A DNA stretch of 64,000 nt from Eledone cirrhosa (lineage: Eukaryota), in NCBI GenBank assembly GCA_964016885.1, contig OZ024740.1, forward strand, positions 400,892,001 to 400,956,000, in the 5' to 3' direction. Numbering within the stretch: the first letter of the stretch is position 1; each line of letters starts with the position of its first letter. Positions 26,107-58,503 of this stretch are shown here, in pieces. Made by a program: the position numbers and the translations under genes. The notes beneath the pieces were generated by a model, which was given only the letters and a program-made list of their open reading frames with translations, made no database searches and was not told the DNA's origin.

Positions 26107-26350
26107 TAAATGAAGTATTTCCGTCGGAAAGGCACAGGAAAAAGAGTACTCTATGTAGGATACAGAGCTTATTAGTTATTTAATAAAGAACATAAGATAA
26201 TTATTTCATTTACCAGTGGTTTCTTGAAGGCAGATGTTATGTCTGTCTTCAGTAAGTCGTCACTGATGACTGAAGACAGACATAACATCTGCCTTCAAGA
26301 AACCAGTGGTAAATGAAATAATTATCTTATGTTGTATATTACATAACTAT
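26107..26350 (-). mobile_element. Fold-back PLE-like 3' end with HHR-like core
   Basis: 65-bp arms 26189-26253 / 26269-26333 (1 mismatch); ctgatga-stem-gaaac-cagtg-gta at 26263-26311 (+); TA runs on both sides. Confidence 0.75.
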
Positions 26351-26384
26351 ATATATATATAAATATATATATATAAATATTATT

Positions 26385-26560
26385 AGAAAGGTAGAGGGTC
26401 AGACACCATGCTTTCAAGCATAGTTACGTCCCTTTACGATCTGAGTTCAAATCCCGCGGAAGTTGACTTTGCCTTTCATCCTTACGGGGTCGATAAAATA
26501 AAGTACCAGTAATGCACTAGATAATTGATGGCCTTGTGCCAAAAGTAGAAACAATTATTA
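26385..26560 (+). mobile_element. SINE copy
   Basis: Colinear with 5160-5350. Confidence 0.85.
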
Positions 26561-26653
26561 GAAATGTAAGCTATCGTCGTATTTTGACTAAAGAAATTAT
26601 TTAGCCTGATAATGGGGTTAAGAACCCTCGGAGAAATGGAAAAAGATGAGTAT

Positions 26654-26725
26654 TGACGTACATGGGAGTCGAACCCACATCTTTGGTTATCCGGACCACT
26701 GTGCTACCATTTACACCAACACCTC
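26654..26725 (-). pseudogene. tRNA-like sequence, probably the head of a third SINE family (body to about 26560)
   Basis: gaggtgt-tggtgtaaatggtagcac-agtggtccggataaccaaagat-gtgggttcgactcccat-gtacgtca: A box, B box and imperfect cloverleaf; the downstream body recurs at 35764-35860 (+). Confidence 0.7.
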
Positions 26726-26792
26726 ACCCGTCTTTTCCCATTCAAATTAGAAGCTATAAATATACATATAAATATATATATATATATATATA

Positions 26793-27090
26793 TATGTATA
26801 TGTATGTATATATGTATGTATATATATATATATATATTTAACGAAGGATGTGTGGTAAGGAACCAGGTGGACCATAACGCACCAGAGTAGACAATACTTT
26901 GGGTAGTAGAGTGGGTAATAGAGAGAGAGAGAGCTCTGCCGTCGAGGTATTGAACCTGTTCCTATTACCCACTCTACTACCCAAAGTATTGTCTACTCTG
27001 GTGCATTATGGTCCACCTGGTTCCTTACCACACATCCTTCGTTAAATATATATATATATATATACATACATATATACATACATATACATA
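26793..27090. repeat. Long inverted repeat (family B fold-back element)
   Basis: Arms about 26793-26921 / 26962-27090, near-perfect, including the compound TA/TATG microsatellite. Confidence 0.9.
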
Positions 27091-27099
27091 TCTCTCTCT

Positions 27100-54256: not shown

Positions 54257-54345
54257 TGTCGGATAATATGTCAAAAGAGGGAAATGATGAGACGGAATCC
54301 CCCACAAAGCCATATGTTTCACTCACACCAGGTTCTCCTACACAG
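54257..54345 (+). CDS. Candidate internal host exon (89 nt; [30 protein letters not shown])
   Basis: Pyrimidine-rich acceptor tatttttcccag, donor CAG|gtaagc, open frame, non-repetitive. Protein not recognised. Confidence 0.45.
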
Positions 54346-55032
54346 GTAAGCGCGTATATATATATATATATTTACATATATGTGTCTGTATATATATATA
54401 TATATATATATATATATATATATATATATATATATATTAGTGTGTATGTGTGTGTATATATATACATATTTACATATATGTGTGTATATATATGTGTGTG
54501 TATATATATATATATATATATATATATATATGAGGTGTGTGTGTATGTTCTCGTGTCTAAGTACTTTCTACTACCTCCAACACTCAGTAAGGTATCGTGA
54601 TATAAATCTTTTCAGAAACGAGCGCCATAAATGTTTAAGGGAAAACACATTTACTGAAGCGATTGCTTGCAGAAGAATGGAAATCATACATCAAACGTCA
54701 ACTCACTCTTATGTGACTGTCATCATAAGCGAACTAATGTTTGCAGTTCACTTCTCACTACTGTACTTGTCTGCTAAAAACTTGTCTGAATTATAGCTTC
54801 GTCTACGGTTACATCAAATTGCGATCTTCAAGATACTAAACTAGATTTGTTTAGTCTTAATGTAAAACTGAGAAGCTAAATATACAAAGATTGTTATCCG
54901 CAAAGTTTGTTATTTATTTGTTTCTTCTAATTCTTCTATTGATGGCTTGAATATTTTTTCCTCTGGTTTCACGGCGAAAACTATAAGTCAATAGGACAGT
55001 TAAACATGAACACGTAGTCATACATTTAACTA

Positions 55033-55440
55033 TCTTCTTCTTCTTCTTCTTCTTCTTCTTCCTGACAGGTTCGTGGGGGCAGACTCCTCAAACACTCCCT
55101 CCAATGGCTCCTGTCGGAAGCAATCGTCTCCAACTAATCCGGAAGGATCCCCAAGCGAGACCAACCAAGTTCATTGATGTTATCCAATCCCCTTGCTCGG
55201 GGTCTACCACTCGGTCTCTTGCTGTTTGGTTTTGCCCGTAAAATCTCTCCAGCAATTCTTTCCTGGGGCATTCTAACCACATTCCCCTAGTATCGGAGCT
55301 GTAGTCTCTCAATTCGGAGAAGTAGCAGCTCTAACTGACTTTCTGATTTCCGAGCTACGCACTCTATCGAGTAATGTTACTCCGTCGAACCTTTGAAGGA
55401 AATCCCTTTCGGTGGCTTGTATTCGCGATCGTATTCTTTC
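55033..55440 (-). mobile_element. RTE LINE 3' fragment with (GAA)n tail
   Basis: Near-identical to 18570-18978. Confidence 0.9.
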
Positions 55441-55459
55441 AAACAAATTAATCCTTCTA

Positions 55460-56650
55460 GAGTTATGGGGGCAGAGTCCTCAATTACGCCTTAGAGTGGA
55501 TCCTGTCAGAAGCAGCCCACTCTAATTGATCGAGCTGGAACCACAGAAAAGACCATCCGAGCTCATGGATATTATCCAGATCACTGGATCGGTGTCTCCA
55601 TTTGGGTTTCCTGCCGGGTGGTTTTGCCCGTAAAATATATCCAGAGATTCTTTCCCGAGGCGATCAAATATCATGTCCATAGTATGAGAGCCGTGATCTC
55701 TCAATACGTAGCAGTAGCGGCTATAATTGGAGTGACTTTCTGATCTCCGACCTACGAAGTATATGGAGTCACAGTACTCAATAGACCCTACGGAGGAGCC
55801 CCTTTTCAGCGGCTTGTATTAGCGGCACAACGGAGATCATCTTGTCTGCATATTCCAGCCGACTGATTTTACACCTGCCAGTCGTAATTCGACTTCCAGC
55901 TCGGCTATGCATGTCAATTTTGTTCATGAAAATAATGAACATAAGGAGGGACACTAAGCCCCAATTATCGGAACACTCGGGAATTCGAATAGAGACATCA
56001 GGACAGCTAGAAGCTGATATTCGATCCCATACACCTGCAGATCCTTTCACAGTTGGTCCCGAGAAACGTGGTCTTATCGAGGTCTACAAAAACGAGGGTA
56101 TACATCTTGTCAATACTCCCACGATTCATTGAAGATCTGCTGCAGTATTAATATTTGGTCGGTTTTGCTGCAACCGGGGCGGAAAATGCACTGTTCTTCA
56201 ACTAGTTTGGACACGACAATCTCCCTAAATCTCTCTGCCAGACACCTAGGAGGCTTACCAGTGAGATCCTCTGTAATTGGAACAGTACCTCTTGTTTCCA
56301 GAGGTCGTATACCCGGTACACAAGAGTCAGCCAGAGAATACTTCTCTATTTAAGGCTTTTAACACCTCAGACCGGATTTCATCTTCTTCCCACAGCGGAC
56401 TTGGCACATTTGAACTCTTTAACTGCTCTTGTGACCTTACTGTCTGAGAGATTAATCACCGCTCTTTCCGACAGAGCTGCTCTGGAAGTGAAGGGTCACA
56501 GGTGGTGGATAGTGATACGGTCACCAAATATGATGGTTCGTAAGCGGACAACTTCCGGACAAATATGCAACACCAGACCAGTACTAAACTACTTGGGGAG
56601 ATAGAGCAATAGGTGACACCAATAGCTCCCAAGAAAACTCTCACAGTCAT
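55460..56650 (-). mobile_element. Older, internally deleted RTE LINE
   Basis: Second diverged RTE C-terminus at 55460-55820; LSxLLFIIFMNKI and LEYADK (YADD-like) upstream. Confidence 0.65.
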
Positions 56651-58328
56651 GCGACGTAGACGCCGCTTCTAAAAATGCCTAGTCATTGCGGGTTTGACAA
56701 AGTATGAGATTGGTGACTAAGACCACCGAAACTGCAACTACAAGGGAGTGAGATGAGGAAAGTTAACTATACTGCATCGCCCTTCAAGCGGATTAACAAG
56801 GGACGCGTTCAGGCCTTAGGTAGAGGGGCCTGTTAAAAAATATACTGCAGTCCCCATTTCATGATTGAAAAGCTGGCTATGGGCCACCGACCTGTCGTCG
56901 AAGGGGTTGGATGGATGCACAAAGATTGCGTATTCAGAGACCCCAAGGATAGTTCGAAACGAAGCCAACCTTGAGAGTTTCAACCTGAAGATAAAGCAAT
57001 CGGGTGAAATGTTGTGATTTGCGCCATTCATTTCTTTATAGTGGAAAAGCGTGAAGAATAAACTGACTCATAAATTGTTGTTAATCTTTTCATCTAACTC
57101 TGTAAATGGAAAATTAATGGCTGTAAGCGTGTATTCTGGCAAACATGATGTTCCCTAATGCGTTAATAGCCGGATGTATATCGTACCTTGTAGCAGGCCT
57201 CGTTGGAAAACTGCTTTAATCAGGAAGCAGTGATAAACAATGGCATTATGCAAGTAAATATGGACCAGGAGGCAACTGACTGCGATGTTACATTATCCTC
57301 AGAGTGGCGATCTAATCTGAATATGTACAGCAAATGGATCCTGTGGATGGAGTTACAGAACAAATGAAATTTAATGCACAAGGCTCGCCCCTGAGATCAC
57401 GGAGTACTAATTTAGCAAAAATGCGACATAGGTTCAGAACACAATAACAACAACATAAGTTAGCTGCAGTCGAAATCGAACTTCGATCGCAAACATTTTA
57501 TCGGAAGATAACAACACTCGTTCCGTCTCTCACCGGAGAAATTAATGCAGTGATATTCTTCCTCTACGATAAGAAATTGATATTCTATCAAAGAAAGCAG
57601 TCGAATAATAATCTATAACATCCTTATTATATCTAAACAACAGCAGGTGAATTTTTTTCTAATCCTAACTGGAAATGAATAATTACTTTAGTCAAAATCT
57701 TTATATTAACGGCGTTTCATGAAGGATTTCTGAAAGACATCGGCCACTTATCATTCTCGTCTATTCGCCTCTATATAATTCGGTGATTGGTGTTACAGTA
57801 TGATTTGCTCCGAGATACAATCGTATCGATGTTTCGAAGGAACGAAGAAGTGGTCAACAGATATAGAGAAGAAATGTAAAAGAAAAACGAATGAAAGAAA
57901 AGAGAAAAGGTAGAAAAGAAAAAGAAAATAGATAAAATAGATGTTCTTTTGAAAGATATATTCGACATCCAGTCATTTGTCTGCCAACAAATGGCTAAGG
58001 TAAAGTGAGCGTTGTGTTTAATGATGGGGAAATATATATAAAGTAGTGGTCAAAAATACATAAATAAACAATACGTACGTTGATGAATGATCACAAATAA
58101 ATAGAGAATTTGTAACGGCATCGTCAATTCTAAATATAATGGCATTCAATGCAAGTAGGAATATCGAAGAAAAACTGGCGTGGCTTTTGGTGCTAATTAA
58201 TCTTTTAAAACGACTGTATATATGGGTCAGAGAACATTGACGGTTTTCAAATTTAACCCTCACATTTTGTTATATATATATATATATATATATATATATA
58301 TATATATATATATATATATACGTGTGTG

Positions 58329-58503
58329 TGTGTGACTGTGTCGGGACCCCGACGGCTGAGCTCTTACTGTTTCAACTAGCTGTTGAAACGGCAAGAGCTC
58401 AGTCGTCGGGGTCCCGACACAGTCACACATTCATATAACTTATTCATAAAACCATACTCTACTACCCCAAGTATCGAGTACTCTGGTGAGTAATGGTCTA
58501 ACC
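58329..58503 (+). mobile_element. Family B fold-back element (palindrome 58329-58429), interrupted by a MITE
   Basis: Right arm gaaac-ggcaagagctcagtc-gtc-ggggtc; tail actctactaccc.aagtat...tactctggtg matches 26970-27003. Confidence 0.8.

Follow-up and report, generated by a model that had tools for sequence, protein, structure and literature searches.

At least five of eight hairpins found at 26,107 to 58,503 of the window, by which we mean the whole 64,000-nucleotide stretch of Eledone cirrhosa DNA analysed here, are short insertions of pseudo-LTRs (pLTRs) of Penelope-like elements (PLEs). Such a stub consists of (TA)n, an antisense arm that starts at a fixed internal site, a variable junction, a sense arm, a one-sided tail and again (TA)n. 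The arms tend to end at a sharp one-sided boundary, hereafter the wall, on their 5' side. We think it somewhat more probable than an even chance that one RNA was copied from both target ends, that copying ran off at its 5' end and that the two copies were joined head to head.

Hairpins of the window

All eight inverted repeats listed by an earlier sequence-only reading are present. BLAST recovered inverted repeats at 26173-26349 (90%), 26792-27091 (91%), 28181-28283 (89%), 29368-29717 (100%), 40306-40562 (79%), 48738-49059 (91%) and 58329-58429 (92%). The hairpin at 39671-39786 was missed by BLAST, yet it folds at z=-8.0. The corresponding scores are -12.7 for 28181 and -14.6 for 58329, and for each of these three none of 200 shuffles folded as well. 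That reading had also given most hairpins a unique tail running to a TA run, which is clear for 26173 (tail 26109-26172), 28181 (up to 28359) and 48738 (49060-49215), with a likely fourth case at 40306 (40217-40305), but does not hold for the other four.

The family D stub (26109..26349, minus strand) has an antisense arm at 26263-26349, a sense arm and a 64-nt tail ending at TA 26097-26108. Its axis at 26261 maps to the hammerhead core, here CUGACGA, as had been proposed for an axis near 26260 beside CTGATGA. The family B insert at 26792..27091, to which no strand is assigned, carries a tail on each of its two arms; the antisense arm begins at the tail end, extends as far as the internal site and is followed by an (AG)n slip and a sense arm from stem III, and about 45 nt of microsatellite flank are mirrored too. 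A family I pLTR copy (27101..27327, plus strand) is hammerhead-like with a variant core, has a tail to TA 27328 and belongs to the same family as the ends of the element at 49242-52496. The family C stub (28181..28359, plus strand) follows TA 28135-28188 with an antisense arm, a sense arm and a tail to TA, and shows 4 nt of microhomology within its CUGAUGA core at axis 28232.

A 5'-truncated, family D-like tail (29233..29367, minus strand) adjoins a perfect palindrome at 29368..29717 (no strand) with 175-bp arms. With its two halves joined tail-to-tail at (TA)10 in the middle, the latter is not a head-to-head PLE stub. The part of its arm that was tested occurs once in the genome. The left junction lies within one 93-nt read-derived contig with 0 differences, from runs that are possibly of the assembly's own sample, and the contigs for 29240-29800 leave the centre uncovered. 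A tail-less, non-inverted family B/A stub between TA runs (36325..36379, minus strand) extends from the wall to the internal site. The family A-type stub (39620..39788, minus strand), next to TA 39789-39804, has an antisense arm reaching the wall, a junction in loop II (axis ~39727) and a degraded left tail. The older palindrome (79%; 40217..40570, minus strand) has arms at 40306-40562, a probable 89-nt tail to TA 40203-40216 and one weak relative among the collected loci. A family B fragment (41190..41240, plus strand) is a tail only, flanked by TA runs.

The family H array (41615..43469, plus strand) is retrozyme-like and consists of tandem 460-bp hammerhead units, one of them inverted. In the family E stub (48738..49215, plus strand) each 158-nt arm holds a full hammerhead, and a 156-nt tail leads to TA 49216; its axis at 48898 lies directly 5' of a AAGATGGCG motif, which we take to be YY1-like. 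Finally, the family A stub (58321..58503, plus strand) follows TA 58271-58320 with an antisense arm, a junction at loop II / stem II (axis 58379), a sense arm with about 11 nt of the left flank mirrored and a tail that breaks off at 58503 before reaching any TA run. The mirrored host flank at 58329, 26792 and 29368 suggests occasional fold-back copying.

Link to coding elements and ribozymes

Three PLE fragments lie in the same region. A broken C-terminal-EN PLE (45235..48620, plus strand) has RVT_1 and GIY-YIG matches at 46800-47998, a 763-nt inverted 5' copy, a 40-nt tail and TA at either end; a search for a hammerhead in it found none. A broken Hydra-type PLE (49242..52496, minus strand) carries RWR, DKT, YRDD and CxCX5C motifs, family I pLTRs, an inverted arm at 52132-52487 and a tail at its 49242 end. 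A 5'-truncated PLE (52560..54011, minus strand) retains an EN fragment with 52-56% identity to one long family E copy, an inverted arm from 53751 and a 55-nt tail, and turns about 20 nt 5' of the hammerhead core. The claim that coding PLEs share the architecture of the hairpins stands for the inverted arm and one-sided tail (3/3 fragments), but none of the three turns in stem II.

Long copies of family B (L126, RT region 47%; L127, EN 52%), family D (L253, with Hydra-like EN/RT homology) and family E (L264) match the window PLE proteins, and the long family A copy L118 does so weakly (E=7e-5). No ORF link was found for family C, and no intact ORF upstream of family A in L098. The features of EN+ PLEs, namely a linked RT and C-terminal GIY-YIG ORF, a pLTR with a type I hammerhead and an inverted copy with a tail, are all present. 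By motifs defined as in the relevant part of PMC8557442, the elements behind the stubs appear to be largely Hydra-type: the 49242-52496 element has RWR, DKT, CNCRNRVDC and a (TA)n target, and CxCX5C was read by eye in L127. Family E and the element at 45235 are not covered by this assignment.

A hammerhead descriptor found the core and stems I-III of a predicted ribozyme in families A, B, D, E, H and I; B has U3-A8, a variant already known (PMC4209133), and I a variant core. The hammerheads of C and G were read by eye only. At the gathering score Rfam gave no hammerhead in the window or in 9 loci, and the best 150 of 235 matches of an e-value scan were miRNA-like hairpins and one tRNA.

Copy statistics

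In order to avoid the bias of a hairpin-containing query, we selected copies of families A-C by tail-only patterns. Inverted copies made up 144 of 192, with junction values corrected by hand for about 27 copies. The outer end is fixed, at position 222 in 48/63 copies of B, at 182-193 in 14/17 of C and at 146, 143 or 140 in 38/64 of A (9 hand-called short arms there have no value). The wall can be seen by comparing arm ends at -14..-5 with those at -4..+5, which number 0 vs 65 in A, 5 vs 79 in B and 0 vs 20 in C. In family I, 10 of 12 inverted copies end within 3 nt of the wall, judged by eye. Non-inverted copies start at the wall too. The B wall is itself spanned by a natural near-hairpin, where the same junction was seen 4 times.

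Both arms end at the wall in 32/144 junctions, and the two ends are at most 4 nt apart in 66/144. The antisense arm reaches further 5' than the sense arm in 55/144 junctions and the reverse holds in 23/144; at a difference of at least 10 nt, the counts are 46 and 13 copies. Copies with a longer antisense arm include L1-like products whose sense part starts near the internal site. The left/right asymmetry in a symmetric window is 9:7 in A, 9:1 in B and 3:1 in C.

Arm-to-arm divergence is lower than that to other copies (7.3% vs 11.0% in B; 15.4% vs 18.8% in A). The two arms nearly always belong to one subfamily, with about 3 discordant cases in about 55 B copies (by eye). Two cross-family chimeras among 91 A copies (L088, L092) and the B copy L135, whose arms differ in subfamily, need two RNAs.

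Position of the turn

The sequence-only reading had placed three of the axes in the presumptive hammerhead stem II and explained them by cDNA stalling there. We mapped axis positions onto long copies of each family. Two of the eight window axes lie in stem or loop II: 58379 and ~39727 map to a type I hammerhead, within its stem II / loop II as proposed, but 28232 coincides with the CUGAUGA core, GAAAC being about 17 nt away. Elsewhere, 48898 is about 68 nt 5' of the core, 26941 is 3' of GAAAC, no ribozyme is present where 29542 turns, and 40434, like its palindrome, is assigned to no family. Across copies the axes are strongly non-uniform, as proposed, and the innermost end lies in stem or loop II in 55/64 and 58/63 inverted copies of A and B; a turn in stem II is family-specific and not general. 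In A and B the wall is in loop II, in C and I it precedes the ribozyme core on the 5' side, family D turns are scattered over about 60 nt, H turns are dispersed and many E copies are long.

Where the arms end does not support stalling at the ribozyme helix. Among 153, 136 and 45 ends in A, B and C, only 6, 4 and 3 come to within 2 nt of the base of stem II on its 3' side, whereas 47, 55 and 11 are that close to the 5' wall; ends cluster 17-24 nt past the helix base. The predicted ribozyme cleavage site has 3, 2 and 2 ends within 2 nt. That the wall is this site was suggested by the family H sense array, which begins at it (42155), and was rejected; among the matches listed, no other family H 5' end starts there.

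Predicted start site

The wall motifs were noticed after the wall position had been seen. In A, B, I and 3/6 long C copies, the base at the wall is the A in an initiator-like motif, YYANWYY. TATAAATA occurs at -29..-33 in 6/6 long C copies and TATTTAT at -31 in 4/4 long B copies. Background values are 3.4% and 1.2% for the single motifs and 0.06% for both. A TATA-like box lies near -31 in B and C; A has no clear one and I has none. An extra G stands 5' of the wall in 6/11 copies of I (template T, p=0.007) and in 4/10 of C; the overall excess is weak (25/98, p=0.04) and absent in A and B. This G may be a copied cap, with some instances possibly coming from the other arm. Taken together, the motifs and the extra G point to the wall as the predicted 5' end of an RNA transcribed from a promoter within the pseudo-LTR.

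Proposed mechanism and alternatives

In the mechanism that we favour, the element enzyme would cut a (TA)n tract and the two DNA ends would prime on the same RNA, which would start at the predicted promoter inside the pseudo-LTR. One target end would prime at the fixed internal site, which is TA-like and some 60 nt away from where the RNA begins, and its cDNA would mostly run off the RNA 5' end; the other would prime at the tail end, and its cDNA would also run off or stop sooner. Short microhomology or a few added bases would then join the two cDNA 3' ends head to head. The turn would be the RNA 5' end, which in A/B is in loop II and in C and I is where stem I begins. A turn set by the RNA start would therefore lie in stem II in some families only. 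The fixed outer end agrees with the pair of RT start sites by which PMC11167929 delimits the PLE tail, and this supports copying from both ends. That arms share a subfamily and resemble each other is equally expected under snap-back, and it is the junction geometry and the chimeras that favour the twin-primed reading. Points that weigh against it are the dispersed turns of D and H and the many long E copies, the left/right asymmetry, the near-hairpin with a recurrent junction at the B wall, the correlation of deletion size with one age proxy in B, the weak excess of G, and the lack of a clear TATA box in A and of any in I.

The same RNA end would also set the turn if the internally primed cDNA ran off, folded there, copied itself and switched to the tail-primed cDNA, a course of events that we regard as unlikely. 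Self-priming has been proposed earlier for PLE inverted junctions, in a passage of PMC3846280, and would account for antisense-derived loops in 55/144 junctions, for arms that share subfamily and 11 rare variants and for the flank mirrored in the sense arm at 58329. However, ends at most 4 nt apart in 66/144 junctions leave no room for a templated loop, mirrored flank was found in only 1 of 99 copies tested, and two-family chimeras exist.

A smaller chance still is given to full symmetric palindromes, made at insertion by either route, whose centres and inner arms were later eroded by hairpin-driven deletions into variable junctions. Many copies have internal deletions, near-complete junctions are more frequent in family B, which is younger, than in A, and in B deletion size follows one age proxy (rho 0.30, p=0.017). 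Against this, deletion size is uncorrelated with tail divergence in every family (rho -0.14, 0.03, -0.04), the 9:1 asymmetry of B goes against erosion, and the wall and chimeras are left unexplained.

We consider it very improbable that tail-primed cDNA stalls at stem II and snaps back, with a second arm that ends at the TA-like internal site. Family B, with 13,722 exact tail matches the most abundant, does turn in stem or loop II, and the insert at 26792 resembles such an event. Snap-back needs a sense arm that reaches further 5', a geometry seen in the 23 junctions above and absent in 121/144. Ends beyond the helix base, the C and I walls 5' of the core and family E inverted pairs at least 188 nt apart among the matches listed, where a stem-II turn would give about 64, also oppose it; as a general rule the stem-II stall is largely refuted.

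MITEs are short, palindromic, present in high copy number and inserted at TA targets. The stubs are asymmetric, differ in junction from copy to copy and originate from retroelements. MITEs with fixed ends or assembly fold-back artefacts are refuted for families A-C and have hardly any standing overall: outer ends are fixed, and 29368-29717 is 100% identical with a centre outside the contigs, but the 144 copies show 117 different pairs of junction coordinates, only 2/81 arm pairs are identical, long copies run into PLE RT/EN sequence, and a fixed family-wide structure with terminal inverted repeats is absent. The stub ends sit in (TA)n, where a target-site duplication is unreadable. That the stubs are products of PLE retrotransposition built at insertion, as first proposed, is borne out by their variable junctions, one-sided tails, diverged arms and link to RT/EN.

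Comparison to known systems

EN+ PLE insertions with an inverted 5'-truncated copy and a one-sided tail, and palindromic junctions read as self-priming, are described in sections of PMC8557442 and PMC3846280. The stubs resemble them in the head-to-head inverted pLTR, the tail at one end, the (TA)n targets and the hammerhead in the pLTR. Compared to those descriptions, most insertions here are pLTR-only stubs of 60-300 bp, tails are about 60-80 nt in families A-D instead of 30-40, and the wall at which inner ends lie is one-sided and promoter-like. For Poseidon PAc in vitro, the corresponding part of PMC11167929 reports a tail delimited by two RT start sites at fixed internal positions, cutting and extension of both target strands by a predicted dimer, an AT-rich target and uncleaved RNA as main template. 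Our proposal shares these features. That part of the work leaves the inverted copy unexplained. In our case the internal start is TA-like and may pair with the target.

In L1 twin priming, as outlined in part of PMC11702581, the second target end primes internally, and the 5' inversion that results is joined through microhomology; reported as well are chimeras of two RNAs and an extra cap G. L1 inversions barely overlap, whereas here priming occurs at a fixed internal site and the cDNAs usually overlap fully, which gives palindromes. Animal non-LTR retrozymes are, in the portion of bioRxiv 10.64898/2026.07.22.740005 used here, non-coding, derived from PLE pLTRs and equipped with a type I hammerhead. 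Family H resembles them, in layout only (at least two tandem units with a complete hammerhead); stubs of A-E and I lack that layout, and those of A and B have no 5' half of the ribozyme and no tandem arrays.

The layout and the self-priming idea are already published. In the literature searched (main texts, with few subscription papers and none of the 2005-2006 PLE reviews) we found no paper that applies twin priming to PLEs, maps PLE inversion points to start sites or maps the turn to a promoter.

Abundance and implications

Passages of PMC8557442 and PMC11167929 treat the way in which PLEs acquire inverted repeats and tails as an unsolved question. Thousands of young short copies offer base-level junction statistics that could separate twin priming from self-priming, and the wall positions are exact candidate start sites. 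The stubs are a large potential source of hairpin RNA and will be mis-annotated as MITEs or miRNA precursors. In octopus, exceptional dsRNA potential and hyper-editing have been described, with the repeats unnamed in the relevant part of PMC5625713.

A broader reading, which we offer tentatively and with more doubt than belief, is that PLEs routinely make a product like a 'strong-stop', in which capped RNA from the pLTR promoter would be copied twice to its first base, once from each target end, by a dimeric RT. Some 250,000 hairpins (order of magnitude, ~2% of DNA) would then record start site and cap, and possibly supply much of the ADAR-edited dsRNA in the animal. The predicted promoter of one lineage would lie inside the ribozyme's own loop II. 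Unselected DNA held 19 such palindromes per 220 kb, or 86 per Mb (95% interval 52-135), and shuffled DNA held 0.

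Palindromes in the window and in unselected DNA

Palindromes, here defined by arms of 30-400 nt that are at least 80% alike, are real and abundant: 22 unselected 10-kb stretches contained 19, covering 1.8% of bases and having TA at an end in 16, and the identical rule gave none in the shuffled control and 6 in the window, which comes from a 3.0 Gb animal assembly. Eleven of the 19, and one more that is TA-centred, could be placed in none of our families. Seven of the eight hairpins of the sequence-only reading were recovered by masked self-BLAST of the window, which also detected the larger inverted repeats described for its three coding Penelope-like elements (PLEs); the eighth hairpin (39671), outside the self-BLAST set, folds far better than its shuffled versions. 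The coding elements are broken PLEs, with RVT_1 and GIY-YIG domain matches at 46800-47998 and Hydra-clade motifs at 49242-52496 (compared with motif definitions in the part of PMC8557442 consulted). The first PLE is abutted by a non-LTR retrotransposon RT frame of 530 aa (43625-45217, minus strand; RVT_1 E=6.5e-32).

Families A to C of PLE pLTRs were searched with the tail alone, so palindromes were not selected for. Exact tail matches numbered 93 for A (58329 and 39671 type), 13,722 for B (26792 type) and 116 for C (28181). Our samples were 92 unique copies of the 93 for A, 74 for B, a non-random draw from the first 28 Mb of contig OZ024740.1, and 29 unique copies out of the first 30 loci for C; later exclusion of a duplicate from A and of one complex locus each from B and C left 91, 73 and 28, and junction calls were corrected by hand in about 27 copies. 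Family D (26173) gave 882 candidates, of which 40 were scored, family E (48738) gave 1,627 matches to its arm pattern, and family H gave 464 exact arm-pattern matches genome-wide, frequently in tandem and inverted arrays. The H array of the window (41615-43469) is retrozyme-like, with 460-bp hammerhead units, one of them inverted. Identical loci doubled at 1-18 kb spacing (L031/L032, L164/L165, L009) represent segmental or assembly duplication.

Inverted copies made up 64/91 (A), 63/73 (B) and 17/28 (C), and two additional A copies have an antisense arm from another family. The antisense arm begins at a fixed internal TA-like site adjoining the (TA)n flank, and the tail is a sense-arm extension of about 75-80 nt up to the other TA run. 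Since junctions vary by copy (51 distinct of 64 in A, 50 of 63 in B, 16 of 17 in C) and the arms of a copy differ by 7-15%, both fixed MITEs and fold-back artefacts are ruled out. Rare long copies carry a full type I hammerhead upstream of the stub part, and those of B, D and E have PLE RT or EN sequence upstream. Earlier work on PLEs already describes the inverted copy, the tail and the (TA)n bias, and proposes self-priming (PMC8557442 and PMC3846280, in the parts consulted).

Position of the turn

Inner arm ends pile up against a wall that is one-sided: comparing the ten bases preceding it with the ten at it, we counted 0 versus 65 ends in A, 5 versus 79 in B and 0 versus 20 in C. In A and B the wall falls inside loop II, with GAAAC about 18 nt downstream; this position accounts for the earlier impression that the hairpins turn in stem II. 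That placement fails for C, with a wall 6 nt 5' of the ribozyme core and 13/17 innermost ends within the 5' strand of stem I, and for I (the family of the 27101-27327 copy), with a wall about 5 nt upstream of the core in 10/12 copies, judged by eye. Short E palindromes turn near a YY1-like motif that lies well upstream, and D and H turns are scattered. Arm ends showed no clustering at the stem II base, so stalling there does not hold as a general rule, nor was clustering seen at the ribozyme cleavage site. Palindromes of a further stub family (L079, L203, L215, L216) turn at the CUGANGA core or just 5' of it.

An initiator-like motif contains the wall base, and in B and C a TATA-like box precedes it by about 31 nt; the pair of motifs recurs in D, yet only some D copies end there. 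We infer from sequence that the wall may be the RNA 5' end. An extra G ahead of the wall (6/11 in I, 4/10 in C, no such excess in A or B) hints weakly at a capped end. Drosophila Penelope has its promoter and start site in the corresponding region (PMC2377424, part consulted). In family B (L126/L127/L199) the TATA-like box and the 5' strand of stem II share bases, and transcripts from this putative promoter would therefore be missing half the ribozyme; its hammerhead core shows U3-A8 covariation. Hammerhead pairs on opposite strands and a U3-A8 core are described in the part of PMC4209133 consulted. In a literature search of limited coverage we found neither a mapping of the PLE turn to a promoter nor an application of twin priming to PLEs.

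Origin of the second arm

The arms of a copy usually agree in subfamily, and therefore a single RNA was probably copied twice. Two RNAs are required in three copies, two of them cross-family chimeras and the other subfamily-discordant. In many copies the antisense arm is complete and the sense part begins only near the internal site, the same pattern as in L1 twin priming (PMC11702581, part consulted). Double copying is also consistent with PLE data in vitro, where two start sites, extension of both strands and a predicted dimer are reported (PMC11167929, part consulted). Counting against it, the left/right arm asymmetry drops when measured in a symmetric window, and host flank is mirrored in the 58329, 26792 and 29368 hairpins, though in just 1/99 tested copies. 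Also against it, arm concordance is equally consistent with self-priming of the second arm, and one age proxy suggests later erosion. Snap-back of tail-primed cDNA, as originally proposed, demands a sense-derived loop at the junction and is allowed by only 23/144 junctions; the antisense arm extends further in 55, and both arm ends lie within 4 nt in 66.

Other elements of the window

The 29368 palindrome differs in kind from PLE stubs, being single-copy DNA doubled tail-to-tail around (TA)10 and adjoining a truncated D-like tail; it is likely a target-end fold-back, with the left junction alone confirmed in contigs. A high-copy element (29553-30010, minus strand) extends into this perfect palindrome; its hammerhead-like motif, a minimal one, lies at about 29790-29745. 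A second hammerhead-like element beside a TA run (35975-36100; CTGATGA...GAAAC with a long stem II) was not confirmed by the hammerhead descriptor. A tRNA-like match of 39.5 bits (26654-26725, minus strand) lies within a repeat, relatives of which are also found as palindromes (L213, L330, L332). An abundant SINE-like repeat is present in about a dozen copies, including inverted pairs, in 3051-36248 (e.g. 30481-30668).
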